Assembly (NCBI GenBank): GCA_963840785.1
Contig: CAWJAF010000003.1
Coordinates: 23,682-87,681 of the forward strand
From: an uncultured Pseudomonadota bacterium
GTDB taxonomy: Bacteria > Pseudomonadota > Gammaproteobacteria > Burkholderiales > JALYOK01
DNA length: 64,000 nucleotides
Direction of reading: 5' to 3'
Shown here: piece by piece, positions 9,996 through 51,133 of the stretch
Numbering within the stretch: the first letter of the stretch is position 1
Layout: the number at the start of each line of letters is the position of its first letter
Position numbers and translations under genes: made by a program
The notes under the pieces: generated by a model
The model's input: the letters and a program-made list of their open reading frames with translations, nothing else
Databases searched by the model: none
Told to the model about the DNA's origin: nothing

Positions 9996-10001
9996 AGCGG
10001 C

Positions 10002-13807: not shown

Positions 13808-13834
13808 GCCAGTATTGCTTTGTAATTCAATTTG

Positions 13835-13855
13835 TTGTGTTGCGTCGCAACACAA
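13835..13855. promoter_or_regulatory. Perfect 10-bp-arm palindrome in the pmoC-like leader (operator or 5'-UTR hairpin)
   Basis: TTGTGTTGCG-T-CGCAACACAA, 55 nt upstream of ATG 13910. Confidence 0.4.
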
Positions 13856-13909
13856 ACGCAAGTTACCAAAGCAAACGACGCAATAATTAATCTTCCTGAG
13901 GAGAAGTTC

Positions 13910-14707: not shown

Positions 14708-14788
14708 ACTAAATACGCGCCGCATTGACGGCGCGAAAATTACAAATGCGTGGGCGCAATGCCCGCGCAAAAAAACTAGGAGGAGAAA

Positions 14789-15601: not shown

Positions 15602-15611
15602 AGAAAACGCC

Positions 15612-18312: not shown

Positions 18313-18705
18313 ATGAATTTTCGACTAACTGCGGTTATTAATCGAATTCTGATCGCCTGCATTGTGACCCTGTCGCTGCTCAGCGCTAGCGAATCTTACG
18401 CCCACGCAAAGCTGGTCAAATCCGATCCTGGGCGCCGCGCTGTGATCAAAACATCACCGAAAGAAATTCGCCTTTGGTTTAACGAGAAACTCGAGGCGGC
18501 CTATTCCTCCGCGACGTTATCCGAAGGCAGCGGAAAAACGATAGCCACCGCGCCAGCGACCATTACCAACGACGATCCAAAGCGCATGACTCTCACTATC
18601 GATAAACTTCTGCCCGGTGTCTACCGCGTTAAATATCGCGTTCTATCGGTCGACGGCCATGTAGTGGACTCTAGCTTCACGTTCACCGTCCAACCGGCGC
18701 AATGA
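18313..18705 (+). CDS. copC: CopC-domain periplasmic copper-binding protein
   Basis: Signal peptide ends SYA, then HAKLVKSDPGRRAVIKTSPKEIRLWFNEKLE...YRVLSVDGHVVDSSFTFTV, the classic CopC fold signature with an N-terminal His. Confidence 0.85.
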   Translation: MNFRLTAVINRILIACIVTLSLLSASESYAHAKLVKSDPGRRAVIKTSPKEIRLWFNEKLEAAYSSATLSEGSGKTIATAPATITNDDPKRMTLTIDKLLPGVYRVKYRVLSVDGHVVDSSFTFTVQPAQ

Positions 18706-21923: not shown

Positions 21924-24900
21924 ATGCGTTCGTACATTGAATTTATCGTCAAATTTCGTTGGATTGTCATTGCGCTGGTTGCGGCAGCGACGATATTTTT
22001 GAGTATGCGTGGATCCTCCTTGACGGTGATTATCGATCCGAACAGCATTGTTCCCAGGTCGCATCCATTCGTTGCGACCACACTCAAAGTAGAAGAAGTC
22101 TTCGGTTCGCGTTACGTCGCGGTAATTGGCATTACACCGAAGACCGGCGACGTCTTTCAAAAAAGTGTGCTGGAAAAAGTTCAGCGCATCACCGCCGAAT
22201 TGCGTACAACGCCGCGCATCGTTAAAACCAATTTGCTATCAGTCTCGGCGCGCCGCGCGAAAGATATCGTCGGCACCGCAGAAGGCATGTCGGTAAAACA
22301 GATGATGACGGAAGTGCCGACAACGCCGGAAGGAATGGCCGAATTAAAAAAGGCATTACAGCGAAATACCGCCTACATGAATTCAGTCGTTTCGAACGAT
22401 TGGAAGACCATCACCATCCTTGCCGAAGTGCGCGACGCGAAGCCGGAAGAAAAGAAGTTAAAGATGGGCGGATTCTCATACATCGCCGCAAAGATTAATG
22501 CGATCGCCGATAAGGAAAGAGACGAAACCGTGGACATTGCGGTGACCGGCTATCCCGCGTTCTTGGCAATGATCGAGAAATATTCCGGGCGGATGAAATG
22601 GATGTTGCTCGCGGCACTAGTGATTATCGGTCTCATCCACTATGAGGCATTCCGCACCATTCAGGGTTTGATTCTGCCATTGCTCACGCCGCTCGTCGCG
22701 GTGGAGTGGAGTAAAGGCTTCATGGGATTGGCCGACGTGCCCCTTGATATTTTTAACATGTCGACGCCGATATTAATTTTAGCGGTCGGTGCCGGACACG
22801 CGGTGCAAATGTTGAAACGCTATTACGAGGAATATAACCGGCTCAATCCTAATCCGGAGCCCGCAGTCGGCCTGCCGCCGATTGCTGGAAGTACTTCGTC
22901 GAATCTGTTCGCATGGATCGGGATTTGGATTTTGTGCGCCCTTCCCTACGCATACTTCGCTTGGAACGGCGCGCCGGCTGGCCCTTGGATGCCCCTTTCT
23001 ATACTGCTTGCGTTGTTGCCGTGGATTTATTGCTATTGGATTCGTCCCTATAAGCTCGCCAGCGCGCAATCGATTCAAGCGAGCAGGCAAGCGGTTACCG
23101 ATTCGATCCTAAAGATCGGCCCGGTGATGATCACGGCCGGCTTGGTTGCCGCATGCGGATTTTTCTCGCTGTATGTGTTCGACATTATTTCAATCAAAGT
23201 GTTCGGCATATTCTCCGGGATCGGTATTCTGAGCGTGCTTATTGTCGAATTGACGCTCATTCCGGCGGTGCGCTCCGTGTTGCCCCCACCGCGCGAAAAA
23301 GAAGCCCGCATGGAACGTGAAGAGCGTTTCTGGGATCGCCTGACGAATTTCTATTCCAATACCTTGTTGGGCCCCAAACGTGATCGCATCTTTGTTGTCG
23401 CGGGTGTCGCCGTGATCATCGCCCTATTCGGCATGAACCGCCTCGCCGTTGAAAGTTCACTGAAAAAATACTTCGATCCGGAACTGCCGTTACTGCAAAG
23501 CGATGCTAAGCTGAACGAGCGCATGGCGGGCACGAATAACATTTATCTGTTGATCGAAGGTGACAAGGTCGATGCCATTAAAGATCCCGCCGTGTTAAAA
23601 GCGATGGATCAATTACAGGAATTCGTCGCCAAGCAACCGAACATCGGCAAGGTCATTTCGATCGCCGAATTCATTAAACGCATGAATCAATCGATGAATG
23701 GCGACGATCCCGCGTTCTTCAAAATTCCTGATAAGCAAGAAACCATCGCTGAATATCTGTTGCTTTATTCGATGTCGGGCGAGCCAGGGGATTTTGATCC
23801 CTATGTCGACTATGACTATCGCTTAGCCAATATGGTGGTATTCAGTCATAGCGACAGCACGTTAGAAATGCGTAAATTTTGGGAACAAACAAAAGCTTTT
23901 GCCGAGAAAACGTTCCCGCCGAACATCAAAGTGAACGTCGGCGGCAGCGTTGCGCAAAGTGCGGCGATTACCGAAGTGATTGTGAAGGATAAAATCCTGA
24001 ACGTTCTTCAGATCGCGTCAGTTGTGTTTGTGGTCGCGTCGTTGGTATTCCGTTCGCTGGCTGCGGGGCTGTTGGTCATTACGCCTTTGCTGCTCTCGGT
24101 AATCATTAACGTCGGCTTGATGGGCTTATTGGGCTTGCGCTTAAATGTTCCAACCGCGTTAACCTCCGCGCTCGCGATCGGCATCGGTGCCGACTATGCG
24201 ATTTATATGTTGTTCCGCCTGCGCGAAGAACTGGCCAAAGGCATCGACGAAGAACAAGCATTCCGTAACGTGATGCGCACCGCGGGAAAAGCCTGTTTGT
24301 TCGTTGCTTCTGCGGTCGCCGGTGGCTATGCGGTTCAGGCATTCTCGCGCGGCTACTATCCGCACACCTGGAACGCGCTATTGATTGGCACCGCGATGTT
24401 GGTCAGCGTAACGGCGGCGTTAACCGTTATGCCTGCGTTAGTTTTAAAATTCCGTCCTAAGTTTATTTTTAATGGAGCTAAAAATATGAAGTTATCCCCC
24501 GCTGCGGCTACTACAATTGCCGTTGCCGTTGTCGCCGTCTTGTCCTTTGGCCACACGAAATCCGCCTATGCGATCACGCCGGTCGAAATCATGGAGAAAA
24601 ACTTCATGGTTGCAAAAATCGCCGATACGACAACGCAGACCACGATGACCTTGACGAATAAATCGGGACAAAAGCGCGTGCGCAAAACTGCCGGCGTCAC
24701 CAAGCTCGAGCCGAATGGCATCGACAATAAGCGCATGACGCGGTTTCTTGAGCCGGCGGACGTGAAAGGCACGGTCTCATTGTTAAGCGAGCATTCGGAC
24801 AAAGACGACGATATTTGGATTTACCTGCCCAGCATCAAAAAAGTGCGCCGCCTCGTTTCCAGCAACAAAAAAGATAGCTTTGTCGGAACCGATTTTTCAT

Positions 24901-25298
24901 ACGGCGATGTGATCGGCCATAAGGTAAACGAATGGACTCACAAATTGATCAAGGAAGAAGACGTTGACGGTAAAATGGCCTATGTCATCGAATCCTTGCC
25001 GCGTGATGCGGCAATCAAAGCCAATTCGGGTTATTCAAAGCGCATGAATTGGATTCAAAAGGATAACTTCGTAACCCTCAAGGGAATGCAATACGACGAG
25101 GCGGGCGAATTGGTCAAGGAATCTCGCTTTGGGCGTTTCAGGAATGTCGATGCCGCTAAAGGCAAGTGGCTGACCGGCGAGCTAACAGTAAAAAATGTCC
25201 AAACCGAGCACACTACACACATTTATACTGACGATCTCAAATACAATATCGGCGTTAAAGACGATTACTTCACCACCCGTTACATGGAACAACAATAG
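21924..25298 (+). CDS. RND-superfamily (MMPL-type) exporter whose ORF continues in frame into a LolA-like domain
   Basis: 1124-aa ORF. The first ~850 aa has two 6-TM bundles with large periplasmic loops typical of MMPL/RND exporters. There is no stop before the LolA-like part. Confidence 0.8.
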   Translation: MRSYIEFIVKFRWIVIALVAAATIFLSMRGSSLTVIIDPNSIVPRSHPFVATTLKVEEVFGSRYVAVIGITPKTGDVFQKSVLEKVQRITAELRTTPRIVKTNLLSVSARRAKDIVGTAEGMSVKQMMTEVPTTPEGMAELKKALQRNTAYMNSVVSNDWKTITILAEVRDAKPEEKKLKMGGFSYIAAKINAIADKERDETVDIAVTGYPAFLAMIEKYSGRMKWMLLAALVIIGLIHYEAFRTIQGLILPLLTPLVAVEWSKGFMGLADVPLDIFNMSTPILILAVGAGHAVQMLKRYYEEYNRLNPNPEPAVGLPPIAGSTSSNLFAWIGIWILCALPYAYFAWNGAPAGPWMPLSILLALLPWIYCYWIRPYKLASAQSIQASRQAVTDSILKIGPVMITAGLVAACGFFSLYVFDIISIKVFGIFSGIGILSVLIVELTLIPAVRSVLPPPREKEARMEREERFWDRLTNFYSNTLLGPKRDRIFVVAGVAVIIALFGMNRLAVESSLKKYFDPELPLLQSDAKLNERMAGTNNIYLLIEGDKVDAIKDPAVLKAMDQLQEFVAKQPNIGKVISIAEFIKRMNQSMNGDDPAFFKIPDKQETIAEYLLLYSMSGEPGDFDPYVDYDYRLANMVVFSHSDSTLEMRKFWEQTKAFAEKTFPPNIKVNVGGSVAQSAAITEVIVKDKILNVLQIASVVFVVASLVFRSLAAGLLVITPLLLSVIINVGLMGLLGLRLNVPTALTSALAIGIGADYAIYMLFRLREELAKGIDEEQAFRNVMRTAGKACLFVASAVAGGYAVQAFSRGYYPHTWNALLIGTAMLVSVTAALTVMPALVLKFRPKFIFNGAKNMKLSPAAATTIAVAVVAVLSFGHTKSAYAITPVEIMEKNFMVAKIADTTTQTTMTLTNKSGQKRVRKTAGVTKLEPNGIDNKRMTRFLEPADVKGTVSLLSEHSDKDDDIWIYLPSIKKVRRLVSSNKKDSFVGTDFSYGDVIGHKVNEWTHKLIKEEDVDGKMAYVIESLPRDAAIKANSGYSKRMNWIQKDNFVTLKGMQYDEAGELVKESRFGRFRNVDAAKGKWLTGELTVKNVQTEHTTHIYTDDLKYNIGVKDDYFTTRYMEQQ
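24486..25298 (+). other. LolA-like 'outer membrane lipoprotein-sorting protein' module with its own SD, ATG and signal peptide, in frame with the RND ORF
   Basis: GGAG lies 8 nt before ATG 24486. MKLSPAAATTIAVAVVAVLSFGHTKSAYA/ITPVEIMEKNF. Also DIWIYLPSIKKVRRL and DGKMAYVIESLPRD...YSKRMNWIQKDNF. Confidence 0.7.
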
Positions 25299-25311
25299 CG
25301 ATTGGAGCCCT

Positions 25312-26691
25312 GTGCAAATATCTAATTCCTATGTCGACTTGATTCGACACGCGCTGCGTAGTTTGTTTGGACTTGGAATGATCGTCGGATCGTCGATTGC
25401 GCTTTGCGCCGATGAGGGCGAACCGCCGATGGCACCTGCTGAACCGACGATGGTTCCCGCAGAAAACGCGGATGTTCCGCGTACTGGCTTTGCCGGCATG
25501 AAGCAGGAACTCCACGACTGGGGCATCACCGGCTCGTTGCGCGGCGCCTATTGGTATTCCAATCGCCGCTCGGACGACGAAAAACATATCCCTAATGTTT
25601 CAGCTTGGTTGAAGCTTGATCGTAAACTGATAAAAGATTGGGGCATTTTCGTCGAAGGTTATTTGAACCGTGAAGATCCGTTCGATACGCGCAAAAACAC
25701 CAGCCGTTTTCGCGAAGCTTATGTCGAAGGCCGCAGCGGCGATTGGGATTTTCGTTTCGGCAAGCAGATCATTGCGTGGGGACGCGCTGATCGTTTTAAT
25801 CCAACCGATAATCTGACGCCGCGTGATTTTACGTTGCTAGCGCCGGAAACAGATGAAGATCGATTCGGGTCAGTCTCCGCCAAAGTCAGTTGGAATATCA
25901 ATTCATCGACGAGCCTAACGGGAGTCTGGCTACCGATGTTCCGCCCGCACGCCTTCGCCGTTCCCGATCAGCCTGGTATCTCGGTTGATAAAGATACGCC
26001 TGACGGCGCGCGGCAATGGGCGTTAAAACTTGATCAATCGGGCAAATCCATCGATTGGTCGGTTTCCTATTTTGATGGCTTTGATCTCACGCCGGACATC
26101 AGTTTTGGCGGCATCGCCACGAACGGAAATCTCATCGCGAAATTTCGCAACAACCGCACCCGCGTTCTGGGCGCAGACGCAGCAACAACGCTCGGCGCCT
26201 ATCGCCTCGCCACGGAAATCGCGTTCACCCGCACCGAAGATAACGGCGGCGGCAATCCCGACATCAAAAATTCTCATTGGTATGGCGTCTTTGGTGTTGA
26301 GCGTTCGTTCGAAGATAATTTAACCATTAACACGCAACTGTTCGGGCGGCGAGTTAGCCACTATTCCAATCCCGAGGACATCGCCAATCCAGCGATACAA
26401 CCGTTCGCCGTGCAAAACGCGATCATTAACAATCAGTACGACAAGCTCCAATATGGATTGACTTTGCGCGTCGCGAAAAAATGGTTCAACGAAACCTTGG
26501 AAGGCGAACTCGCCGGCAGCGTGCTGCTGAATCGCGCGGGTTATTTGATTCGACCGAAAATGGTCTACGCCTACAGCGATAGCATTAAGCTAATCGGCGG
26601 ATTCGAATATTTTGGTGGATCCGAAAAAACTTCCTATGGCAGCCAAAATAAAAATCGCGGTGTATTTGCGGAAATGCGTTATTTCTTTTAG
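25312..26691 (+). CDS. Putative outer-membrane beta-barrel protein partnered with the RND/LolA-like pair
   Basis: GTG 25312 after GGAG. Signal peptide. Alternating beta-strand-like pattern. C-terminus AEMRYFF ends in Phe, a typical OMP beta-signal. Possibly DUF1302-like (unverified). Confidence 0.6.
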   Translation: MQISNSYVDLIRHALRSLFGLGMIVGSSIALCADEGEPPMAPAEPTMVPAENADVPRTGFAGMKQELHDWGITGSLRGAYWYSNRRSDDEKHIPNVSAWLKLDRKLIKDWGIFVEGYLNREDPFDTRKNTSRFREAYVEGRSGDWDFRFGKQIIAWGRADRFNPTDNLTPRDFTLLAPETDEDRFGSVSAKVSWNINSSTSLTGVWLPMFRPHAFAVPDQPGISVDKDTPDGARQWALKLDQSGKSIDWSVSYFDGFDLTPDISFGGIATNGNLIAKFRNNRTRVLGADAATTLGAYRLATEIAFTRTEDNGGGNPDIKNSHWYGVFGVERSFEDNLTINTQLFGRRVSHYSNPEDIANPAIQPFAVQNAIINNQYDKLQYGLTLRVAKKWFNETLEGELAGSVLLNRAGYLIRPKMVYAYSDSIKLIGGFEYFGGSEKTSYGSQNKNRGVFAEMRYFF

Positions 26692-36735: not shown

Positions 36736-37806
<1,071 letters not shown>

Positions 37807-37813: not shown

Positions 37814-39652
37814 CTAGTTTAGGCCGGGAACGCGGTCCAGGCTCGCCAAAAATTTTTCCGGGGCTTGATAGCCGATCACTTTTGCACTTCGCAACTCGGT
37901 GCCTTTTGGATCGAAGAAAATGATTCCGGGCGGGCCAAACAACCCAAATCGCTTTAGCAATTCGCCGTGTTCATCCGAGTTACTCGTGACGTCCGCCTGA
38001 AGAAGGATGGCATCTTTGAGCTTGGCCTGAACTTGGCTATCGGTAAAGGTGTTGTGTTCCATCTCTTTGCACGATATGCACCAGTCAGCATAAAAATCCA
38101 AGATCACTGGCTTGCCCGCAGCGGCGCGAAGTTGGCTATCCAGTTCAGCCACACTGGCGACGCGTTTGAAGTCTAATGACTTATTTACTGGAGACGCGGC
38201 ATTGGCCATCTTGAATCCACCGAGTGGCTGCAGTAGGTCGCGGTTGCCGGATAAGGCACCAACTAACATCGCGATCCCAGCGATTAACGACAATACGCCC
38301 GCGCCCTTGCCAAAACGCAATATGCCGCTTGCACCTTGCGGTAGCGGATCGATTGCGGACAGGTAAATCGCGCACATCACCAACAATGCGCCGATCAACA
38401 GCATGGTGGCGGTCATCGGCATAACCGGCATGACTAACCAGATCGCAACGCCGAGTAACAGTACGCCGAAAACTTTTTTCACTGCGTCCATCCAACCACC
38501 CGCGCGCGGCAGTAATGCACCCGCTGAGGTCCCTATTAACATCAATGGGACACCAATCCCCAAAGCCATGGCAAATAACGCCGATCCTCCTAACACAACA
38601 TCGTGACTTTGGCCGATATACAGCAACGCGCCTGCGAGCGGCGGCGCAACGCAGGGACCAACGATGACGGCCGACAGCGCCCCCATTGTGAACGCGCCGA
38701 ATGTGCTGCCTCCCTTAACTTTGTTACTCGCATCATTAAATTTGCTCTGAATAGAATTCGGTAATTGTAATTCGTAGAAGCCGAACATTGACAGCGACAG
38801 AATTACGAAGACCAACGCGAATCCGCCCAGTACCCAAGGGTTTTGTAGCGCCACCGAAAGCAGCTTGCCGGACAGACCCGCGGCAACTCCGGCGAGCGCA
38901 TAGGTAATGGCCATACCTAACACGTACGACAAGCTCAAAATGAACGCGCGCGATTTTTCGATCTTTTCGCCGCTGCCCACAATGATGCCGGAGAGAATCG
39001 GAATCATCGGGAACACGCAGGGCGTGAATGCGAGTAGCAATCCCGCAACAAAGAATGCCGCGATGACGGTAAAGAAACCGCCGCCTTTGAACATGCCCGC
39101 AATCTTATCGGTCTCCGACGCACTTTCCGCGGATGCGGCGGAATCGCCAGTGGGGCCGACGGTCTGCGCCTGGGCAGATGAGATGATCGAACCCTCGACC
39201 GCGATATTCGCGTTTATGTGTTCCAATCCGCTCCACTTAAACGACTTAGTGATCGGCCGATAACACAATCCTTGTTCGCTGCAGCCGCGATAGGTCGCAG
39301 TGATGTCGGCGGTTGCGATTGTAGAAGCATCGCCGTCTACTCTGACCTCGCCTTGAACTCGATTGTGAAAAATCGCGACCTCGCCGAAATTCGGATCGGA
39401 CTTCGTCTCGCCTTGCGGAAGAATCAGTCGCGACGGCATTTCGTTCGAACCATTCTTGACCACGATTTTCAGATGGTCGCGATACAGGTAATGGTGTGGC
39501 GCGGCTTCAAAAGTAGCGATGAGTTTGTTGTCGCCTGTTCGCTGGACACTGAACTTGAATGCATCATCCGGCTGCAAGAAGCTATCTTCGCCTACTTCCG
39601 CCACGGCGAGCAACGGACACAATGCCAATAACATAAACAAAATTCGTTTCAT
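37814..39652 (-). CDS. dsbD: Thiol:disulfide interchange protein DsbD (periplasmic N-domain, TM core, C-terminal thioredoxin domain)
   Basis: ATG 39652 after GGAGA gives MKRILFMLLALCPLLAVA. TM core with AFTPCVFPMIPIL and VGPCVAPPL. C-terminal DFYADWCISCKEME. The 118 codons upstream in the ORF track overlap the neighbouring gene and are not coding. Confidence 0.9.
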   Translation of the reverse strand: MKRILFMLLALCPLLAVAEVGEDSFLQPDDAFKFSVQRTGDNKLIATFEAAPHHYLYRDHLKIVVKNGSNEMPSRLILPQGETKSDPNFGEVAIFHNRVQGEVRVDGDASTIATADITATYRGCSEQGLCYRPITKSFKWSGLEHINANIAVEGSIISSAQAQTVGPTGDSAASAESASETDKIAGMFKGGGFFTVIAAFFVAGLLLAFTPCVFPMIPILSGIIVGSGEKIEKSRAFILSLSYVLGMAITYALAGVAAGLSGKLLSVALQNPWVLGGFALVFVILSLSMFGFYELQLPNSIQSKFNDASNKVKGGSTFGAFTMGALSAVIVGPCVAPPLAGALLYIGQSHDVVLGGSALFAMALGIGVPLMLIGTSAGALLPRAGGWMDAVKKVFGVLLLGVAIWLVMPVMPMTATMLLIGALLVMCAIYLSAIDPLPQGASGILRFGKGAGVLSLIAGIAMLVGALSGNRDLLQPLGGFKMANAASPVNKSLDFKRVASVAELDSQLRAAAGKPVILDFYADWCISCKEMEHNTFTDSQVQAKLKDAILLQADVTSNSDEHGELLKRFGLFGPPGIIFFDPKGTELRSAKVIGYQAPEKFLASLDRVPGLN

Positions 39653-39689: not shown

Positions 39690-40862
39690 TTAAAACTTTT
39701 TACTGATTCCGACTTGCCACCATTTGGCGGTGAAGTTTTCGATGCCGGGACTGCCGTCGCCACCGAGACGCCAGGAGCTGCGCTGCTGATACCAGTCGTA
39801 TTTAAAATCGATAGTCCAATCGTGAGCAAATACTTTTGCGACTTTAAATCCCAGCGTGACGGCGCCGAAAGCAGAAAGGCGGGAGTCAGCGGAAAAATTC
39901 GTCGCCGTCGCCGCACCGACAAAATCCAGCGGCGGATCGCGATAGAAATTTGCGGCGCGTTGTGTGTAGTAGCGTATCGAGGGTCGCAAAGTCCAACCAG
40001 TACCAACCGGCTGATACCAAGCAGTTTCTATCGTGTGCGCGGCAATACCCCAATCGTTTTTGAAGTATCGATAACTCGTATGCAACGCCCCACCGACGCC
40101 GGCAAAAAAATGGTTGTAGCGCGTCAGCCACGCCCACGCGGTCCGTGAGTTCGGACGCTTATCAAAATCCTTATAGGGATCGGAAAAGTATCCTTTACCG
40201 ATCGAAACCGTGAGATTCGATTGGATCAAATCGTTGGGCGTGAGTACCTGAGTAATGCCGATTAAGCCATCGGTCGTCCGACGTTTTTCCTGCAAAGTAG
40301 CATTATTGGAAGAACCGATTTCGTCGTCCGAATAACCAACACCCGCGGCATACGTCGTGTTGTTGTTCGCACTCGACAATCGCCCATCTAAACTAATCGC
40401 GTTGGATTCATAGTCATGCTCTTTCGATCCGGCAATACCGACGCCGATAGCGGCACGATCGAGAAACGCCGTGACTTTTAAATCGCCGGCTTTGCGGTAA
40501 TCACGAATGCCCACACCTGACGCGCCGGATAAGGTGTTGTATGCACGCGGCGATGCGCCCGACATCGAGTCCAAAACGAACGCGCCTTCAATGGAATAAT
40601 TCTCCTTGATCGGTGTCAAAAAAAACATCGCCGGACTGCTTACTTTCATGCGTTCGCCGGTCTGCTGATTTTCTTTGTATTGAAGAAACTTAAAACCGAT
40701 CGTGGTTTTTTCGGGCACTGCTTCAGCCTTCGCAACTGGCGTTGCCACAATGCCCGGCAATGCCAATGCCGCCGCCATCAGCGAATTGGCCAATAACGAG
40801 CCGCTATTCGTCGCTGCCCTAGCTTGAACTGGCAACCCCTTAGATTTTTTCTTTAGTTGCAT
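39690..40862 (-). CDS. DUF3570-family predicted outer-membrane protein
   Basis: Signal peptide ends AKA/EAV. Beta-rich and Tyr/Gly-rich. Ends WWQVGISKKF (terminal Phe). Contains DSMSGAS (40571-40551). Family call is from memory. Confidence 0.65.
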   Translation of the reverse strand: MQLKKKSKGLPVQARAATNSGSLLANSLMAAALALPGIVATPVAKAEAVPEKTTIGFKFLQYKENQQTGERMKVSSPAMFFLTPIKENYSIEGAFVLDSMSGASPRAYNTLSGASGVGIRDYRKAGDLKVTAFLDRAAIGVGIAGSKEHDYESNAISLDGRLSSANNNTTYAAGVGYSDDEIGSSNNATLQEKRRTTDGLIGITQVLTPNDLIQSNLTVSIGKGYFSDPYKDFDKRPNSRTAWAWLTRYNHFFAGVGGALHTSYRYFKNDWGIAAHTIETAWYQPVGTGWTLRPSIRYYTQRAANFYRDPPLDFVGAATATNFSADSRLSAFGAVTLGFKVAKVFAHDWTIDFKYDWYQQRSSWRLGGDGSPGIENFTAKWWQVGISKKF

Positions 40863-41068
40863 CCGCAACCTCCACCGCCCACCCCAGATCCACCCGATGC
40901 GGATTCTTTACTGAAATAGGTGTGTTGATCAAAGCGTGTTTCCAACGAATCGGTATCAAGCGCCATAATCGGCTTGGCTAGATTGCCCTTTTGCCAAGGA
41001 TTTACAGGCTGCAGCGAACATGCTGACAAAAGCGTAAGGCACAACAATATGAGACTGGATCGAATCAT
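40853..41068 (-). CDS. DUF4266-family small lipoprotein
   Basis: Lipobox LLSAC. 71 aa. Ends ASGGSGVGGGGCGCN. Overlaps the DUF3570 gene start. Confidence 0.65.
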   Translation of the reverse strand: MIRSSLILLCLTLLSACSLQPVNPWQKGNLAKPIMALDTDSLETRFDQHTYFSKESASGGSGVGGGGCGCN

Positions 41069-41089: not shown

Positions 41090-41617
41090 TTATTTAGCCT
41101 GCAACAACTGCTTAATTTTCGCTTCTAGTTCTGCCGCTTCACCGTCTTTAAATCCACGATGAACAAGATTCACTTTGCCGGTACGATCGATGAGGTAAGA
41201 ACTCGGCATGCCTTGAAGATCGTAGGTGTTGGCGACTTTGCCTTCAGGGTCGAGCAACACGGTAAATTCCGCGGGTGTGGTCGCAAGAAAACTATCGGCG
41301 TCCGCTTTCGTCGCATCGACGTTCACACCGACGACTTCGAAGCCATCTTTTCCATATTTTTTTTGCAATTCATTGAGCCAAGGGAAGGTCTTTTTACAAG
41401 GCCCGCACCAGGACGCCCAAAAATCGAGATAGACGACTTTGCCCTTGTAGTTCGATAGCTTGACGCTATCTTGCTTCAAGCTCGGCAACTGAAAATCCGG
41501 CGCCTGCTTACCTTGATCGACCGCGAAGGCCGCGACCGGCAAAGCAAAGACCGCGACAAGGGCCAATTTTCTAACACTGGCTTTTGCGAAGATTGAAACA
41601 CTTGAATTAAATATCAT
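41090..41617 (-). CDS. TlpA/ResA-like periplasmic thiol:disulfide oxidoreductase
   Basis: Signal/anchor, then [21 protein letters not shown] (CxxC). ATG overlaps the upstream gene's TGA. Confidence 0.85.
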
Positions 41618-43548
41618 CGATATCTCCTGGCATAAATTAAATTCTGATTATTGAAATGAATGCCGTTCTTGTCCGCGTTTGGCATACGGCGATACCTCAA
41701 ATTCATTCGCCGCCGCGCCAAAATCGTTGTCAGACTAAATAAGAACAGCGCCGCTAAGATCGGATCGAAACTTTGGCTCGATTGAATCGAGCAACCACCG
41801 GCGCCGACGTTTGTCGCAGGCGTGGAAGTTGTTGGAGGTCCTGCGACGGCGGAACCGCTGCCGCTCAACGGTACCGTAAGCGTGGTGCCCGTTGCATTCG
41901 TCGTCACGATTAGGTTCGCAGTTTCGTGCCCCGGCAGCGGTCGGCAAAAATTTGATTGACACATCGCACGAAGCCGACGCTGGCAAGATGCCGCACACGC
42001 GTTAGCAGCACTGTTGTCGACGCTGTATTCGTCGGCGTTAGCTCCGGCAATTCCGATCGAAGCGATGGTCAACACTTCCGTCGCGCTGCTGTTGGTAATC
42101 GTCAATATTTTCGCAGCACTGGTTGTGTTGAGGTCTTGATTGCCAAAGTCGATACTTGGTACGCTCAGCGTGGGTGTCGGGAGCGCGACAGCGACGCCAG
42201 TGCCGGAGAGATCAATTCGCTGCGTCGCATTCACGACGTTCCCGGCGTCATCAGTAATTGTGATCGTCGCGCTTTTCGCGCCAACCGAGGCTGGATTGAA
42301 TGCCACGATAACAGTGCAGCTCGCACCGATCGCGATCGCGCCGCTTGCGCAAGTGCCGGTGCGCAGGAATTCCGTGCCATTGCTGTCTTGGATATTTGAA
42401 ATCGTTAAGGGTTTGGTGCCACCGTTACTCAACGTAACTGTTTTCGTCGTGCTTGCGGTGCCGATAGTTTGATCGCCGAACGATGGCAACGTCGACGGCG
42501 AAAATGTTGCCGCGGGCGTCGGCGTCGATGCAGCAAGGCCCAGGCCACTCAAATTAATGGTCGCGGGACTCGCCGTGCCGTTATAGGCGATCGACAACGC
42601 ACCCGCTTTTGCGCCTGCCGATCCGGGCGTAAACATGACACTGAGCGTACAAGTTTGACCGGCGGCTACAGACGTTCCCGCTTTGCAGGCCGTAGGGGAT
42701 GTCTGGTCTAACGTAAAGTCCGCCGGCAGTGTAAATGCGGAAAACGTCAAAGCTGCAACACCGCTATTGGTCAACGTGACGTTGCCGCTAGTCGCGGCAC
42801 TGGAAGCGCTGACCGTGGTATTGGGGAAAGTCAATCCGCCCGAAGGCGCATTCAGGCTCACGCTCGCCGAACCGCTGATGGTGCCGGAAACGGCCACATT
42901 TTGGCTGCCGCCATTGTAGGCGATGGCCAACGTACCGGTTTTTGCGCCCGCGACGCCTGTGAGCAAGGAAACAGCAATCGTACAGTTCGCGTTCGAAGCA
43001 ACGGCTGCGGTGCAATTATTCGCAACTCCGAAATCCGCAGCGGCAAGACCAGTCGCCGATGTGACGGACAGATCCGTGAGGCCGGTATTGGATATTGTGA
43101 TTGTCTTCGTTGGCGCGGGGCTCGCGCCGAACGCTGTCGTCGCGAAAGCCAGCGTTGTAGCCGAAGCAGAGAGAATGGCGCCGGCTGTAGGATTAGCGAT
43201 ATACGCGGCCATGTCCGAAAGTTCAGCATCTGTGAGAGCGGTACCGCCGAATGTTGGATTCACCCCACTATTCACCGGGCCAAAATGTGCCATGGTACCG
43301 ACACCACCATTGATTGCCGCCTTGGTATTTGCCCAATTGGTCCCATTAAGTATCTTGTTTAGATTCAGGGCTGGATTTGTTCCATGACACGTCGACGTCG
43401 CACAATCGTCGAGAGCAGAAATGTTGTATATGTTCGGCGTATTGACATAAAGTGCTTTGCCATTCGCCAAATTTGCAGCGACAGCGCTTTGGCTCGGGGC
43501 CAAACTACATCCCAACAAACTAGCTATCAAAATTCGAGAAAAAGACAT
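41614..43548 (-). CDS. Large secreted protein A: cytochrome c-like N-module with CX4CH, four choice-of-anchor-D-like Ig repeats, GGC/TM/RRR tail
   Basis: LLGC lipobox-like signal. GKALYV...[13 protein letters not shown]...TMAHF...[16 protein letters not shown]. Repeats carry two Cys each. Tail [33 protein letters not shown] (41805-41707), followed by 30 odd residues up to the tlpA overlap. A local frame excursion occurs at 41922-41994. Confidence 0.7.
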
Positions 43549-43763
43549 CCTTGCTCCTTGTACATGGAACCTCCAGTCCTATAACCAGCCGAGTGTGAGT
43601 TCGTTTATTTTTTGATTGACTGGACGGCTTGCTAAAAAGCCCATTACCCGGTTCCAACTCTTGTCAGAAAACCAAATACCTAGGTCAAACTTTTCGATTC
43701 ATTCACATTTATCGATTGCAATGATTAAGGGTGCGCAGTTAATACACCGCGCACCCTCGATTG

Positions 43764-46700
43764 CTATTGCTGGCGTTTACGAACTACCAGACCTAATCCT
43801 GACAATAAGAACAACGCGATTAGCGCAAGATCGGCCTCGCCATGTTTCAACATCACGCAACCACCGCCGCCACTACCGGAATTAGTGGTAGGTGTTCCGC
43901 CGGTATCGGCTGCTGCGGCATGACCCTTTAGCTTGACCAGTTCGGTCGTGCCGTCAGAATCATTGTTGACTTCAAGATCGTCCTCGTGATCGCCTATCGC
44001 CGTGGGTTTGTATGTAACCTTGATCGTGCATGACGCGCTCGGCGCAAGCGCGGTGCCGCATGAGTTCGTCACGACGGCAAAGTTGTCACCTTGCTTAACG
44101 GCGATCTTGCCGAGTTTCAGGTCCGCTGTACCAACGTTTTTCAGCGTTATTTCCAACTGCGCGCTGATTTGCCCAGCCTTGGTGGTCTCAAACTCTAACG
44201 AAATGGCCGGTATGCTCAGGATCGGCGTCCCAGCCGTTGCTGTCACACCTTTGCCTGTTAGTGCCACCGAATCCATTCCGTCGCCAGCGTCCGTCGAGAT
44301 GTCAACCGTTGCGCTGCGACTACCGGCGACGGTTGGTTTAAACGTGACATTGATCGTGCAAGTGGCGCCCGCAGCAAGCGCCGTTCCGCAGCCGTTGGTT
44401 TGGCTGAAGTCCGCCGTTCTGCGTGCCTGCAATCGCAATCGACTTCACTTGCATTGCACCGTTGCCGGTGTTTTTCAATGTAATGATTTGTGCGGCAGAT
44501 GCGGAACTAATCACTTGGTCGGCGAACGCAAGCGATGCCGGCGACACCGACAGTATTGGCGTAGCAACTGCGACACCGGTTCCGGTCAGCGTGATCGTGT
44601 CCGGGCCACCGATGGCGTCCGACATGATCGTAACAGTGCCGGTTCTCGCGCCAGCAACTGTTGGTGTGAAGGTAACGGAAATCAAGCAAGGCACGCCGAC
44701 TAGCACTTGCGTGCCGCAAGTGTTAGTTTGCGCAAAATCGCCACTTGCAACGATGCTAGTGATATGCAGCGTTGCCGTACCGCTGTTCGACAACGGTGAC
44801 TGTCTTGACGCCGCTCGTCACGCCCACGGTTTGATTACCAAACGCGAGACTTGCCGGCGTTAGTGAAACATCCGGTGCCGCAACTGCGATGCCGGTACCT
44901 TCAAGTGCCGTTGCCAACACGCTCGAGTTCGACGCCACGTTCAACGAAGCGGTGCGCAGCGCCGCCACGGTGGGCTTGAACGTTACGCTGATCGTGCAGC
45001 TTGCGCCGGCGGCTAGTGTTGCGACACAGGTGCTTGTTGCTTTCGAGAAATCAGCCGAGTTCGTTCCACCAATCGTAATGCTGCTGATATTTAATGCAGC
45101 CGACGCGCTCGTATTCTTGAGCGTCACCAATTGCGCCGCGCTGGTGGTATTGATGGTTTGGTTGCCAAAGCTTAACTTCGCTGGCAGCAACGTGGCCGTG
45201 GGTAACGGCGCTGTGGTGCCGGTGCCGGTCAATGCGATACTTCTCGGGCTGCCACCTGCGTTATCGGTAATGGTCAACGCGCCGGTTCGAGCACCTGCCA
45301 CCGTGGGCTTGAATGTGACCGTGATGGTGCAGTTCGCTGCCGGAGCAACAGAGCTGCCGTTGGCGCAGGTACCGCCAGACTTGGCGTAATCACCGCTGAC
45401 AACTATCGTCGACAACACTAACGCTGTGTTGCCGGTATTGCTAACGGTAACGGTCTGCGCGGCGCTCGTGGTATTGATCTGGACGTTGCCAAAGGTCAAG
45501 CTGGCAGGCAGCGGACCCACGACAGGAGCTGCCGCAGCGACACCACTACCGGTTAGGGCGATGGCATGCGGGCTACCGGTCGCGTTGTTGGTAATGGTGA
45601 TCGATCCCGTCTTGCTCGCAACCGTTGTCGGTGTAAACGTGACGTTGATGGTGCAGCCCAATCCGGTGCCGAGGCTGGCGCCGCAGTTGTTGCTTTGCGC
45701 GAACTCACCTGACGCTGCGATAGTGCTAATCGTCAGCGCAGCGTTGCCGGAGTTGGTCAACGTGATCGTCTTCGCCGCGCTGGTCACGTTAATCATTTGG
45801 CTGCCGAATGCGAGGCTCGTGGGCGTGAGGCTGACTTGCGGCGTCGCAACCACGGTGCCCGTGCCACTTAAGGCGATATTTGCAGCCGGCGCATTCGATG
45901 TAATTGCAACCGAACCGGCGCGCGCACCGGCGGCCGATGGCGTAAAGGTGACCGCGATAGTGCACGTCGCGTTCGCCGCAACGGTTGCACCGTTGGCGCA
46001 AGTTCCCGATTTGGCGAAATCAGCGCCATTCGTACCACCCACGCTAATGGTTGTCAGCACGAGATTCGCTATGCCGGTATTTTTCAGCGTGACGGTTTGT
46101 GCCGGGCTCGGTGAGCCGACGGTGACATTGCCGAAAGCCAAGCCAGTATTGGGCGTCAGCGTAATCGCAGGTGCAGCCGCTGCAACGCCTGTGCCCGAGA
46201 GCGAGACTGCATGCGGACTTCCGGCGGCGTTATCGGACACGGAAATCGTTCCGGTTTTCGCGCCGAGCGTCGTGGGCTTAAAGCTCACACTGATACTGCA
46301 ACTTAGGCCCGCGCCGAGACTCGCACCGCAAGCATTAGTTTGCGCAAAATCGGCGGACGATGAAGCAATGCCGCCGATCGTAAGCACGCCGGTACCGGTA
46401 TTTTTCAGCGTGACGACTTGCGTTGCGCTGGTGGTATTAATCTGTTGATTGCCTAAGGCAAGCGGCGACGGTGTTAGCGACACACCCGGTGTTGCCGGCG
46501 CGGTGCCAGTGCCGGAAAGCGGCAGCGTGTGTGGGTTGCCGCTCGCGTTATCGGCAAAGGAAAGGCTTGCGCTGCGCGCGCCGACTGCGGCGGGCGTAAA
46601 GGTAACGTTAACCGTACATGATGCGGCAGCGGCCAAGGTCGCGCCGCAGGTCGTTGTTCCTTTGGTGAAGTCGGTTGCGTTCGTGCCGGTTACGGTCATG

Positions 46701-47155
46701 CTCGTGATATTGAGCGTCGCCGTTCCAGAATTTTTTAGCGTCCCGATCAATGCTGCGCTCGTTGCACCCTGCACCACACTGCCAAAGGCAAGGCCGGTCG
46801 CCGGTGTCAGGGTCGCGATTGGCGCGGCGGGCGGGCCACACTGAGCTGAGATGTACGCAGCCATGTTGTCTACATCGACACTGGTCAGGAGGTTCAAGCC
46901 ATAAAACGTCTTAAGTGACGCCATTTCGGCGATACTATTGAACGCCAACACAATGCTCGCGTTGGTTGTTCCTTTGCAAATATTGTTTGTATTCTGAAAC
47001 GCAGTGGTGCCGTGACATCCCGATCCTAAACATCCCATGCCAGGTTTGGTTTTGCCTTCAAAAAGCGGTTGACCCAATGTGGCATCGCCCGCAGCAAACA
47101 CGCAGACGCTAATCAAAAACAGAAAAACTCCAATTACAGCGCGTAAATAATTCAT
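43764..47155 (-). pseudogene. Large secreted protein B (~1130 codons): CX4CH N-module plus nine Ig-like repeats plus GGGGC/TM/RKR tail, split by two frameshifts
   Basis: ORFs 44756..47155, 44338..44793 and 43764..44438 are consecutive pieces of one repeat protein. The junctions read KTVTV|SNSGTATL (near 44794) and IAIAGTQN|ADFSQTNGCGT (near 44415). N-terminus has GQPLFEGKTKPGMGCLGSGCHGT...DVDNMAAYISAQ. C-terminus is SGSGGGGCVMLKHGEADLALIALFLLSGLGLVVRKRQQ. Confidence 0.75.
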
Positions 47156-47732: not shown

Positions 47733-48629
47733 ATGAAACAGAAATCTGCTGGGCTGGAAATATCAACTGAGGTCTCATTTCGAGCGCTCCGAAAAATTTT
47801 TCGCCCTATCGTCAAATACATGATTGCCCGTGGCATTACCTTCCCGGCAGTAACTCAGCTCCTGAAATCCCTTTACGTTGAAGTCGCTAACGAAGAATTC
47901 CCATTGGCGGATCGGCGCGCAACTGACAGCCGCGTAAGCATGTTGACCGGAATCCACCGAGGTGAAGTGAAACGACTGACGGAGGATGGCGCAGCCGAAA
48001 GCGAAACTACGCCTAGCTCCGTTTCGTTGGGCGCCCAAGTTGTTGCGCGCTGGATCAGCGACCCGTTGTATCTAGACTCCCACGCGAATCCCGTTCCGCT
48101 GCCTCGTCATGCCAGCGATGGGGGTGACGCGTCCTTCGAATCACTTGTCGCCACTATTCGCCGGGATATTCGGTCGCGGCCGATGCTTGATGAATGGCTC
48201 CGCCTTGGGGTTGTAGCGTTAGATAATCAGGATCGGGTTTGCCTAAAGACAAAAGCATTTGTGCCGGAAAAGGGTAGTGAGGAAAAAGCATTTTATTTTG
48301 GCCAAAACCTACATGATCATATTTCCGTGAGCGTAAATAATATGCTAGGCGAACAGGATTCACTGCTTGAACGTAGCGTGTACTACCATCGTTTGACGCC
48401 AGCGTCGATCGAAACGCTAAAAAAACTCGCTACCGAACTAGGGATGCGCTCGGTTCAGGAGGTCAATCGTCTTGCGTCTCAACTAGATCGCCTCGACGGT
48501 GGGCGGCCCGACGCAAACCAGCGCATGAATTTTGGGATTTACTTCTTTCGAGGTGCGAGCGATGACATCGCACCGCCGCCGATTGAACCGGCCAAGATAA
48601 AACCGAATCCGCGCAGCAAGGGAAAATAA
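47733..48629 (+). CDS. Cytoplasmic protein of unknown function with an HTH-like segment (possibly DUF6502-like)
   Basis: 298 aa, no signal peptide. TDSRVSMLTGIHRGEVKRL resembles a helix-turn-helix. Family name is from memory and unverified. Confidence 0.5.
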   Translation: MKQKSAGLEISTEVSFRALRKIFRPIVKYMIARGITFPAVTQLLKSLYVEVANEEFPLADRRATDSRVSMLTGIHRGEVKRLTEDGAAESETTPSSVSLGAQVVARWISDPLYLDSHANPVPLPRHASDGGDASFESLVATIRRDIRSRPMLDEWLRLGVVALDNQDRVCLKTKAFVPEKGSEEKAFYFGQNLHDHISVSVNNMLGEQDSLLERSVYYHRLTPASIETLKKLATELGMRSVQEVNRLASQLDRLDGGRPDANQRMNFGIYFFRGASDDIAPPPIEPAKIKPNPRSKGK

Positions 48630-48637
48630 GGAAAATT

Positions 48638-50158
48638 TTGAAGTCGACGAATCGAAACCACATGGTGCTTTTTCTTAAGTTGTGCAATCGACAATTGCCT
48701 AGCCATTTCGGAATTACGCTAATCCTCTTAATCGGAAGTCTGCTCTCGGGGTGTGGCGGCGGCGTGGGTGGAACAGGCGGTGGAGGTGACGGCGGCGGGG
48801 GCAGTGGCGGCGGTGGCGTAGGCGGAACAGGTATTGTCTCAATGGGAACGGTAAAAAAAACGGAACCTGCAACTATCACCGTCAATAATACCGCCTACCA
48901 GATCACAGCAGAAACTAAAGTAACCCTCGACGGGAAAGGCGCGCCGGTGACGGATCTACAACCGGGTATGGTCGTCGAGGTGGACGCTTATAAATATACG
49001 GATACACAAATCACCGAGGCCGAAGTCATCACCTATAAAAATACGCTGACCGGGCCAATCAGTTCAATTAACGGAAATTGCGGTTCCATGGTAGTTCTAG
49101 GACAAATTATCGAGGCCGATACGCATACACTGCCGACACTGGTTAACGGATTATGCGACTACAGCATTGGTGAAATTGTTGAAGTTAGCGGCTACGTTAG
49201 CGATACCGTGTTGAACGCTATTCGTGCAACGTTTATTCGCATTAAGGCCGCTTCGCAAAAGGTCAACATGTCAGGGAATATCGCCAGCGTGTCGGCAGCC
49301 CAGAAAACATTTGTGATTGGCGCATTGACAATTGACTATGCAAATGCGGAGTTTGAGCCGTCTAACGCGGTGCCCGCGGTCGGTAGATTTGCAAGAGTGA
49401 GCGGCATTGCAACGGGCTTTGATACAGTCGCTGCGACCGAAGTTGAGATGAATCCAGAAGGCTTGGGCGGTAACGCGGGGAATGAAGCGGAGGTTACCGG
49501 GTTTGTCAGCAATCTGAGTGGGACAACGTTCACGGTGAACGGGCAAGCAATTAACGCAAGCAAAGCAAAAATCTCACCTGAAACCGCGACGCTTGCGAAT
49601 AGTGTGAAAGTGGAAGTACACGGCAAGCTCAACACGCAATCGGAGATCGACGCGAGCGAAATTGAAGTGAAATCAACATCTCCAATCAGTATTCAATCCA
49701 ATGTTGAAGCAATCAGTGCAAATGGATTGACGCTTTCGGGTATCGCCATTCTCGTGAACGATTCGACCCTATTCCAGGACGAAAGCGGCAATACGTCGAA
49801 ACTAAAATTAGCTGACATTCGCCCTAACGATCAAGTAACGATTTCCTGTTACCGAGACGCAAACGGAAATCTCGTGGCTCGAAAAGTTGAACTGAAAACT
49901 CCAAGCACGAAATTCACCGTCGAAGGCGATGTCGTAAGCGTGCAACCTAGCGGCTATTCGTTCTCGATACTTGCAGGCCTCGATATCACTGTCGTCATTG
50001 GAAACCTCACCGAGATAAAGAGTCATAATGGGCGATTGCTCAGCCCTGAAGAATTTCTTGCGCTTCTGAATCCGGGTTCGAGAGTAAAAGCCGAAGGTGT
50101 TCTAGGTTCAGCAAAATCACTTGACGCGACATCGGGTAAGGTCGAAATAAAGGATTGA
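48638..50158 (+). CDS. Lipoprotein with a poly-Gly linker and ~6 DUF5666-like beta repeats
   Basis: TTG 48638 after AAGGA. Lipobox LLSGC, followed by GGGVGGTGGGGDGGGGSGGGGVGGTG. Repeated G-x-[IV]-x-S-[IV]...F-x-[IV]-x-G units. Confidence 0.6.
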   Translation: MKSTNRNHMVLFLKLCNRQLPSHFGITLILLIGSLLSGCGGGVGGTGGGGDGGGGSGGGGVGGTGIVSMGTVKKTEPATITVNNTAYQITAETKVTLDGKGAPVTDLQPGMVVEVDAYKYTDTQITEAEVITYKNTLTGPISSINGNCGSMVVLGQIIEADTHTLPTLVNGLCDYSIGEIVEVSGYVSDTVLNAIRATFIRIKAASQKVNMSGNIASVSAAQKTFVIGALTIDYANAEFEPSNAVPAVGRFARVSGIATGFDTVAATEVEMNPEGLGGNAGNEAEVTGFVSNLSGTTFTVNGQAINASKAKISPETATLANSVKVEVHGKLNTQSEIDASEIEVKSTSPISIQSNVEAISANGLTLSGIAILVNDSTLFQDESGNTSKLKLADIRPNDQVTISCYRDANGNLVARKVELKTPSTKFTVEGDVVSVQPSGYSFSILAGLDITVVIGNLTEIKSHNGRLLSPEEFLALLNPGSRVKAEGVLGSAKSLDATSGKVEIKD

Positions 50159-50197
50159 GGATTTAAACGCGCTCGATTCAGGCACAATGCGACGCCA

Positions 50198-51133
50198 ATG
50201 ACAACGCTTTTTCGATTTAGCTTCCACGCCATGGCGAGCGAAAACGAACTCCAGCTCTATGTGAATGACCGCCCGGAAGCAGCCCGCGTAGCGGAACTCG
50301 CGTCCGAGGAAGTGCGGCGCATTGAACGAAAATTTTCCCGCTATCGAGACGATAGCCTCCTCACCCAAATCAATCAGGCCGCCGGCCGACATGCCGTACC
50401 TATCGATACCGAAACTGCCGCGCTGCTCGCCTATGCTGATGCGTGTTTTAAGAAAAGCAATGGTCTGTTCGATCTAACTTCGGGTGTGTTGCGGCGCTGC
50501 TGGAATTTTAAGGCAGCCCGTTTACCGGATCCCCAGCACCTCCGCGTAACGTTAGCATTAGTTGGGTGGGACAAAGTCCAATGGTCGACAACAGAAATCT
50601 ATCTGCCAACGCTCGGGATGCAACTCGATTTTGGCGGAATCGGCAAAGAGTATGCGGCCGATCGGGCCGCTGCCCTATGTCTTAACGAAGGGATCAATAG
50701 TGGGTTAGTAAATCTCGCCGGTGATATCCGAATTCTTGGCCCTCACCCAGACGGCTCGCCATGGCGAATCGGCATTAAGCACCCGCGCCAACCTGGCGCT
50801 ATTATCGCAAGCATTGATCTAAGATCAGGTGCGCTTGCAACTAGCGGCGACTATGAGCGATATTTTGAAATAGCGGGGCGACGTTATTCGCACATCTTAA
50901 ATGCGAAGACCGGCTACCCCGTCAGCGAATTACAAGCCGTGTCGGTGACCGTGCCATTGTGTAGCGTCGCCGGTAGTCTATCAACAATCGCCATGCTTAA
51001 AGGGCGGAAAGGGCCTCGATTTTTGCGATCGGAAAACGTTGGTTTCATTGCTGTTGATCAAGATGGAAAGATTAAATCCAACCTTGGATCGATGCTTGGT
51101 TTGCGTCATCACGACGAGTTTTCGTTGATTTAG
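50198..51133 (+). CDS. apbE: ApbE-family FAD:protein FMN transferase homologue without a recognisable signal peptide
   Basis: FHAMASENELQLY, FSRYRDDSLLTQIN, DFGGIGKEYAADRA, ATSGDYERYF and HILNAKTG are ApbE motifs. An in-frame TGA at 50156-50158 prevents any longer N-terminus. Confidence 0.85.
   Translation: MTTLFRFSFHAMASENELQLYVNDRPEAARVAELASEEVRRIERKFSRYRDDSLLTQINQAAGRHAVPIDTETAALLAYADACFKKSNGLFDLTSGVLRRCWNFKAARLPDPQHLRVTLALVGWDKVQWSTTEIYLPTLGMQLDFGGIGKEYAADRAAALCLNEGINSGLVNLAGDIRILGPHPDGSPWRIGIKHPRQPGAIIASIDLRSGALATSGDYERYFEIAGRRYSHILNAKTGYPVSELQAVSVTVPLCSVAGSLSTIAMLKGRKGPRFLRSENVGFIAVDQDGKIKSNLGSMLGLRHHDEFSLI

Follow-up and report, generated by a model that had tools for sequence, protein, structure and literature searches.

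In a 64,000-nucleotide stretch of contig CAWJAF010000003.1 from an uncultured Pseudomonadota bacterium (the window), two neighboring genes, A and B, encode paralogous proteins that each begin with what appears from its sequence to be a rare class-I-type cytochrome c domain with a widened attachment site, CX4CH in place of CXXCH. The domain is followed by a stalk of immunoglobulin-like (Ig-like) repeats and a JDVT-CTERM sorting signal, and the two genes lie among those of a flavinylation system. We consider it somewhat more probable than otherwise that the two proteins act as tethered haem carriers of single electrons, fed by a thiol-to-flavin relay. A preliminary description of this DNA had already recognized the cytochrome-like modules and the Ig-like repeats; its interpretation is supported here, although the flavinylation system around the two genes, their JDVT-CTERM anchors and the frameshifts had escaped it.

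The attachment motifs reported in the preliminary description translate as described, to CATSTCH in A (C49-ATST-C54-H55, positions 43404-43384) and CLGSGCH in B (C42-LGSG-C47-H48, positions 47032-47012). Among the window open reading frames (ORFs) of at least 100 amino acids, C-x2-CH or C-x4-CH motifs occur only three times, in A, in B and in a canonical cytochrome c fused to CopD, indicating that the motifs in A and B are not chance occurrences. The N-modules of A and B share 34% identity (E = 3e-7), consistent with the proposed paralogy. The label "giant" was an overstatement, with A at 644 amino acids and B at about 1130 amino acids when stitched; of the two ORFs described, that of B is broken by two frameshifts.

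Profile analysis was consistent with the cytochrome c-like character claimed for the module. When isolated, module A reached the Pfam thresholds marginally (PF13442, 27.8 bits with a cut-off of 27; PF00034, 22.1 bits with a cut-off of 21.3), and full-length A scored 20.8 bits, below the cut-off. Against a family profile from which B-type sequences had been left out, module B scored 64.5 bits. A word-indexed homology search returned no matches for the N-module of A alone and two proteins for the family alignment, and a phmmer search of the PDB with a single module gave cytochrome matches of sub-significant E values (0.05-0.2). When an A+B profile was run exhaustively with HMMER over 1.84 billion representatives, only 37 proteins scored at E ≤ 1e-3, revealing a rare family in which nearly all members carry C-x4-C-H at the same place. 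The preliminary description had staked its assignment on the conservation of these residues among homologs, and both Cys-x4-Cys-His and the downstream Met were found to be conserved.

Across 36 aligned domains, the positions that never vary are a Gly of the N-terminal helix, the first Cys, the Cys-His pair (H35), a Gly and a Met (M66). The family profile matched solved class-I cytochromes, including actinobacterial QcrC (1.7e-8), c4 (4e-7) and c6 (1e-6). In these alignments, the first Cys and the Cys-His correspond to CXXCH plus a two-residue insertion, and the invariant Met aligns with the Met of the MP.F ligand region in QcrC. Profile alignment to the CopD-fused canonical cytochrome c of the window gave the same Cys/His/Met register. 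PF13442 matched 26 of the 36 family members scanned at E ≤ 0.01, and the NCBIfam matches of the family were all to c-type cytochrome families. An AlphaFold2 (AF2) model of module A (predicted local distance difference test score, pLDDT, 81.5) displayed the N- and C-terminal helices expected of a class-I fold.

Addition of domains from 36 metagenome loci, scanned with a 9-sequence alignment, gave 85 non-identical domains. Every one contained such a motif, of the CX4CH type in 66, CXXCH in 13 and CX5CH in 6, and in 69 domains a Met is located 29-31 residues past the His. Identity between CXXCH and CX4CH members reaches 61%, and in locus L029 a CVACH head is present in an otherwise identical Ig and JDVT protein with the same neighbors. 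Because of the profile match to class-I cytochromes, the invariant Cys, Cys-His and Met, and these CXXCH relatives, haem binding by the N-module is very likely. The four-residue Cys spacing, described as unusual in the preliminary description, is indeed uncommon, but CX4CH is an already known haem c motif (PMC11492766). Since neither A (C-ATST-CH) nor B (C-LGSG-CH) has the canonical CXXCH, the domain was filed as a variant subfamily and not as a standard class-I member.

The Ig-repeat bodies of A and B matched NCBIfam choice_anch_D (NF012200) with 179.5 and 476.8 bits, respectively (cut-off 45), and also Pfam ASH, HYDIN_VesB_CFA65-like_Ig and Cep192_D4, confirming the choice-of-anchor-D/HYDIN type suggested earlier. 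The counts given for the repeats, four in A and nine in B, were also correct, with one C-x(9-11)-C pair in every repeat. Both proteins scored above the cut-off of 27 bits for JDVT-CTERM (NF033191), with 38.5 bits for A and 30.5 bits for B. This motif consists of a single invariant Cys followed at +9 by Asp(-Pro), then a hydrophobic helix, and last a cluster of Arg residues (bioRxiv 10.1101/2023.06.07.544157). The C-terminus of A has the same layout (single Cys, Asp-Pro at +9, hydrophobic stretch, RRR), and that of B reads GGC-VMLKHGEA-DL...RKR, with Leu where the motif has Pro. An N-terminal lipoprotein signal in A (LLGC) was considered and rejected, as it is not conserved in B or in P0008, the A orthologue from the syntenic metagenome locus L004 (70% identity); all three proteins contain an AxA site for signal peptidase I. 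B-type heads contain two extra cysteines, C60 (NNICKG, ~46976-46978) and C106 (SAQCGP, ~46838-46840), which are kept in P0001 and P0002, are absent from A-type heads, and may form an extra disulfide.

In nine loci, a gene for an MrtJ-like CPBP protease is located directly upstream of a family member, and L007 contains both such a protease and the flavin block described below. In L007, a Rce1-like CPBP protease of the MrtJ type and a cytochrome-Ig-JDVT protein are called as one 1010-amino-acid product (P0009, 901-3933), which is either a true fusion or the result of a missed gene boundary. The JDVT-CTERM preprint of Haft independently notes that DUF4266, DUF3570 and TlpA genes adjoin those of certain full-length-homologous JDVT proteins, offers a guess at a joint function, and nowhere mentions haem or cytochrome (bioRxiv 10.1101/2023.06.07.544157).

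The short tail of gene A overlaps the start of tlpA, the first of five genes on the same strand downstream of A, in the order TlpA, DUF4266, DUF3570, DsbD and TrxB. Upstream of B is a divergent unit encoding DUF6502, a DUF5666 lipoprotein and ApbE (47733-51133). The whole cluster is syntenic in L004, and a DUF5666 lipoprotein gene is also found upstream of a family member in L018. A scan for promoters and terminators gave fewer sites than in shuffled sequences, and was hence uninformative. DsbD, a thioredoxin-like protein, DUF4266, DUF3570 and ApbE constitute the "DsbD system" of Méheust et al. 2021 (PMC8238504), and all five components are co-located in the window. In that study, flavinylation of DUF3570 by ApbE at two [S/T]GA[S/T] motifs was demonstrated, with attachment of flavin mononucleotide (FMN) demonstrated only for the Chlorobium luteolum protein; the function and electron acceptor of the system were left open, and a cytochrome partner was not mentioned (PMC8238504). 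The window DUF3570 carries both motifs, MSGASP and LSGASG, in ...DSMSGASPRAYNTLSGASG.... The window DUF4266 likewise has the C-terminal CXC by which that study defines its DUF4266 component.

The association of the cytochrome gene with this block extends to other loci. In eleven of them (L004, L006, L007, L010, L013, L014, L029, L031, L036, L037 and L040), TlpA-DUF4266-DUF3570(-ApbE) comes directly after the cytochrome gene; L010 and L014 are relatives of the Nevskia sp. protein WP_439641799.1. The TlpA-DUF4266-DUF3570-ApbE block precedes the cytochrome gene in two more, L043 and L044, where the head has a CAACH motif and the body is fibronectin-III-like (FN3). Adjacency to the flavin block was thus observed in about 13 of 28 informative loci.

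To DUF3570 we assign a predicted topology, a feature not described in the flavinylation paper (PMC8238504). Its AF2 model, built with 35 homologs, is all-beta with 16 long strands (pLDDT 83.1). Foldseek matched the model to the outer-membrane barrels FadL, OmpG, CymA and OprD/Occ at about 1e-9, and its C-terminus, ...GISKKF, is a typical barrel ending. DUF3570 is thus predicted to be a 16-strand outer-membrane beta-barrel. The long connections of the model are all odd-to-even strand links, and both SGAS motifs lie in a 16-residue link between strands 3 and 4. With periplasmic termini, such links would be on the outer face, and the FMNs are therefore predicted to face the exterior or to sit inside the barrel lumen.

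In the mechanism that we propose, A and B would be Sec-exported proteins, each with one N-terminal class-I-type c-type cytochrome domain, in which the two Cys would form thioethers, His55 (A) or His48 (B) would act as the proximal ligand and Met86 (A) or Met78 (B) as the distal ligand. The head would be carried by a stalk of four (A) or nine (B) disulfide-containing Ig-like domains. Cleavage of the JDVT-CTERM signal by a CPBP-type protease would leave the protein attached to the envelope by a lipid, probably on the surface of the cell, in analogy to MYXO-CTERM, for which processing by myxosortase provides the precedent (PMC11980579). The electron flow that we infer would begin in the cytoplasm, from reduced nicotinamide adenine dinucleotide phosphate (NADPH) through TrxB and thioredoxin to DsbD in the inner membrane. 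In the periplasm, electrons would pass from DsbD to TlpA, and then to the CXC lipoprotein DUF4266, placed at the outer membrane by its lipobox. From there, they would reach the two ApbE-attached FMNs on the DUF3570 barrel. The haem heads of the two proteins would come next, and would hand single electrons to an acceptor in the periplasm or outside the cell. The flavin would thereby turn the two-electron chemistry of the thiols into single-electron transfers suited to the haem. On generally known potentials, the redox order from thiols to flavin to a His/Met haem is expected to run downhill, and for both of these reasons the proposed order is chemically sensible. An extended form of the proposal, in which these components form a new trans-envelope conduit free of quinones and multihaem cytochromes (NADPH, a dithiol relay, the FMN "flavoporin" DUF3570, and surface monohaem cytochromes on two stalk lengths, with a CX4CH haem site or, in relatives, a CX5CH site not described before), is put forward only tentatively.

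Several points weigh against the carrier proposal. For the head domain, the isolated module B has no Pfam match, a Foldseek search of the PDB with the apo model was not significant (top matches cytochrome c'', SoxX and c6, E > 2), and haem attachment to CX4CH in a class-I fold is deduced here from sequence. For the envelope, the surface location of A and B is assumed by analogy, and a search for the MrtJ protease in the 64-kb window did not find it. A single haem atop a 15-35 nm stalk cannot wire electrons along that stalk, so the head must swing to the membrane. The DUF3570 set is missing from about half of the ~28 informative loci (L001-L003, L011, L012, L025, L028 and others), and most DUF3570 clusters in PMC8238504 lack such a cytochrome; the link between the two is therefore accessory. 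B is frameshifted and A locally garbled in the assembly. Finally, TlpA and DsbD could be mere maturation helpers.

This last point forms the basis of the main alternative, in which A and B would be haem-tipped adhesins or redox sensors and their link to TlpA and DsbD would be purely biogenetic. The thiol reductants would keep the CX4CH cysteines reduced and proofread the Ig disulfides, and DUF3570 and ApbE would pass no electrons to the haem. The TlpA protein does belong to a ResA/CcmG-like subfamily, its cluster mates being named "cytochrome c biogenesis protein CcmG" in IMG, and each Ig repeat offers a Cys pair to proofread. Repeats of the choice-of-anchor-D and ASH types are characteristic of adhesin-like proteins at the cell surface, and half of the family members have no DUF3570 set beside them. 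However, the adjacency extends beyond TlpA to the whole TlpA-DUF4266-DUF3570-ApbE block, and is kept with canonical CXXCH heads (L029, L043), for which special reduction should be unneeded. The same block is present in hundreds of genomes without this cytochrome (PMC8238504), which argues that it is not a dedicated maturation kit. We regard this alternative as unlikely. A dedicated haem lyase, as for MccA or NrfA, was also considered, and no such gene was found in the cluster or in related loci.

A second alternative is that the N-module is a haem-free relic, a degenerate cytochrome fold in which C-x4-C forms a structural or redox disulfide serving as substrate for the TlpA/DUF4266 thiol relay. 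Such a role would suit the thiol-disulfide proteins encoded next door, the non-canonical and variable Cys spacing (four or five residues), the 6-14-residue insertion that separates the GxxLY helix from the first Cys, and the lack of significance in the fold search. A disulfide nevertheless leaves unexplained the invariance, across all 85 domains, of a His right after the second Cys and of a Met about 30 residues further on. Canonical CXXCH occupies the equivalent columns in close relatives, and CX4CH is itself an established haem c motif (PMC11492766). The relic reading is accordingly improbable.

The last alternative concerns the integrity of the genes. The intact 1017-amino-acid B orthologue in L004 maps by tblastn over three frames of the window, indicating that the real gene B spans 43764-47155 and encodes about 1130 amino acids. 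Its longest single ORF, 44756-47155(-), encodes 799 amino acids; the two frameshifts, near 44800 and 44430, are both uncompensated, with continuation ORFs at 44338-44793 and 43764-44438. In A, comparison with the L004 orthologue revealed a compensated -1/+1 pair of single-base indels 75 nt apart within 41735-41998, which garbles about 25 codons of the fourth Ig repeat. Given that the source is a 795-kb metagenome-type contig and the gene is repetitive, assembly errors seem more likely than early decay. That the pair is being lost from the source genome, with B a pseudogene, A damaged and the locus without current function, would fit these departures from the intact L004 orthologues and the finding that the exact sequence of A is not on record, whereas those of its neighbors are, but has little probability. 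Every indel is a single base and the gene is highly repetitive, a pattern typical of errors in assembly or polishing. The frame of A is restored by its second indel, and the orthologues are intact in L004, in L005 and in 22 cluster members of near-identical sequence.

Table 1 Features of the putative cytochrome and flavinylation locus in the window, with supporting evidence.
Feature	Position	Strand	Description and evidence
Gene A, 644 amino acids	41614..43548	-	Signal peptide, CX4CH cytochrome c-like head, 4 choice-of-anchor-D Ig repeats, JDVT-CTERM, short tail
A N-module, residues ~25-123, putative class-I-type cytochrome c domain	43180..43476	-	Pfam scores, AF2 model, family alignments
A putative haem-attachment motif CATSTCH	43384..43404	-	Translation; columns invariant in family
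A Met86, candidate distal haem ligand	43291..43293	-	Invariant column M66 of alignment A2/A3
A JDVT-CTERM sorting signal, GGC..DP..hydrophobic..RRR	41707..41805	-	NF033191, residues 582-614
Gene B, ~1130 amino acids stitched	43764..47155	-	Signal peptide, CX4CH head, 9 Ig repeats, JDVT-CTERM; two frameshifts in assembly
B N-module, residues ~21-108, same cytochrome c-like family	46832..47095	-	34% identity to A; family-profile score
B putative haem-attachment motif CLGSGCH	47012..47032	-	Translation
B Met78, candidate distal haem ligand	46922..46924	-	Falls in invariant Met column
B JDVT-CTERM sorting signal	43767..43874	-	NF033191, residues 189-223 of ORF 43764-44438
TlpA/ResA-like periplasmic thioredoxin, WCGPC	41090..41617	-	Pfam AhpC-TSA, Redoxin, Thioredoxin; NCBIfam ResA subfamily 2.1e-36
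DUF4266 small lipoprotein, ends GGGCGCN (CXC)	40853..41068	-	PF14086 5.5e-24
DUF3570, predicted ApbE flavinylation substrate, two SGAS motifs (residues 103-106, 114-117)	39690..40868	-	PF12094 6.3e-72
DsbD, N-terminal, transmembrane and thioredoxin domains	37814..39652	-	PF02683 1.2e-98, PF11412 5.9e-25
Thioredoxin reductase TrxB	36736..37800	-	TIGR01292 394 bits, cut-off 343
DUF6502 protein, first gene of divergent unit	47733..48629	+	PF20112 7.6e-27; syntenic in L004, L005
Lipoprotein, six DUF5666 repeats	48638..50158	+	PF18914 4.7e-42, 6 stretches; syntenic in L004, L005
ApbE, flavin adenine dinucleotide (FAD):protein FMN transferase	50198..51133	+	PF02424 8e-76

Compared with class-I cytochromes (c6, c4, c551/c552, QcrC, CcoP), the heads of A and B share a length of about 90 amino acids, a predicted GxxLY N-terminal helix, the Cys...Cys-His followed by a Met about 30 residues on, and a predicted C-terminal helix L[TS]DxE..AAYI, with aligned ligand columns. 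They differ in having 4-5 residues between the Cys in place of two, and a 6-14-residue loop before the first Cys; and, whereas class-I cytochromes are soluble proteins or subunits, the A/B domain is fused to an Ig stalk and a C-terminal sorting signal. The same widened motif is found in the CX4CH haems of multihaem cytochromes (tetrahaem c3; NCBIfam TIGR01904, "CxxxxCH/CxxCH domain c-type cytochrome"), and one family member weakly matches TIGR01904. The tetrahaem c3-type motifs, however, belong to bis-His multihaem folds unrelated to class I, whereas the A/B family is monohaem and presumably His/Met-ligated. Unlike in those multihaem systems, CX4CH is the norm in the A/B family, alongside a CX5CH clade.

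In agreement with the JDVT-CTERM/MrtJ system, both proteins score above the cut-off with a single Cys and an Asp at +9, and MrtJ-like proteases lie upstream in relatives. In contrast to the usual single JDVT-CTERM protein per genome, the window contains two, and its search revealed no MrtJ. The locus differs from the published DsbD-type flavinylation system in the linkage of TrxB and in the presence of two tethered cytochromes in the same transcription direction. MtrCAB and Cyc2 are porin-cytochrome outer-membrane conduits, and the proposed arrangement would resemble them by functional analogy, in combining a cofactor-bearing outer-membrane barrel with a surface cytochrome to carry electrons through the outer membrane. 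It would differ from them in the barrel cofactor, covalent FMN and not haem, in the donor, a dithiol relay and not quinol or multihaem cytochromes, and in a single-haem surface protein; sequence relationship to them is none.

Within the searches made, the CX4CH/CX5CH monohaem family, its combination with an Ig stalk and JDVT anchor, and its conserved adjacency to the DUF3570 system are new, while the JDVT anchor and the flavin system are of already known kinds. The preliminary description had suggested that a haem or other redox head on such a stalk would be novel. The heads have mostly been missed by annotation, family members being labeled "choice-of-anchor D domain-containing protein", sometimes, wrongly, "trimeric autotransporter adhesin", and once "mono/diheme cytochrome c family protein", but the combination of head and Ig repeats recurs beyond the window in dozens of environmental proteins.

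The family displays further diversity. A CX5CH clade (CSENTQCH, CSDNTSCH) is found in L001, L002, L003, L021 and L032/L033 and in P0020, P0024 and P0036, with P0036 (CASSSSCH) an independent case; the haem c motifs that PMC11492766 lists do not include CX5CH. P0007 (920 amino acids) combines an N-terminal CX4CH domain with a canonical CXXCH domain (residues 779-862) just before its JDVT-CTERM, and is thus predicted to have a haem domain at each end of the stalk. In P0003 (L008 8001-9608; GCA_015232395.1) and P0004, SLH-like repeats are followed by 3-4 tandem CX4CH domains, giving a different cell-surface architecture with the same head, and the flavin block is not nearby. The CAACH member of L043 (7698-7946) and L044, located directly after TlpA-DUF4266-DUF3570-ApbE, has a fibronectin-III-like region and another domain in place of the Ig repeats. 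In loci without the flavin block, other redox genes were seen a few kb from the family member: a multihaem cytochrome (c7/MtrC-like) in L025 (4976-6253) and a multicopper oxidase in L012 (6221-8293).

Elsewhere in the window is an amoCAB/pmoCAB-type copper membrane monooxygenase operon (13832-16874, + strand; Pfam AmoC, AMO, Monooxygenase_B), followed by two small ORFs without a Pfam match and the CopD-canonical class-I cytochrome c fusion (16871-18304, 18702-20648). The AmoA 90% cluster has only six members, and the host may be a little-known oxidizer of ammonia, methane or alkanes. The window also contains a PrkA-DUF444-SpoVR triad, and an MMPL/RND transporter-LolA-like fusion by a DUF1302 outer-membrane protein (8043-12530 and 21924-26691).

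The adjacent tethered cytochrome provides a concrete candidate for the downstream partner of the orphan DsbD/DUF3570 system, which, if the conduit reading is true, would gain its first identified acceptor. Within one class-I-type family, CXXCH, CX4CH and CX5CH replace one another at the same site, and nearby there is no lyase gene dedicated to them, which is relevant to the range of substrates that general haem c maturation systems accept. Motif-counting surveys include CX4CH, and standard domain annotation misses these heads. The JDVT-CTERM sorting system, for its part, would gain a defined class of cofactor-bearing cargo.

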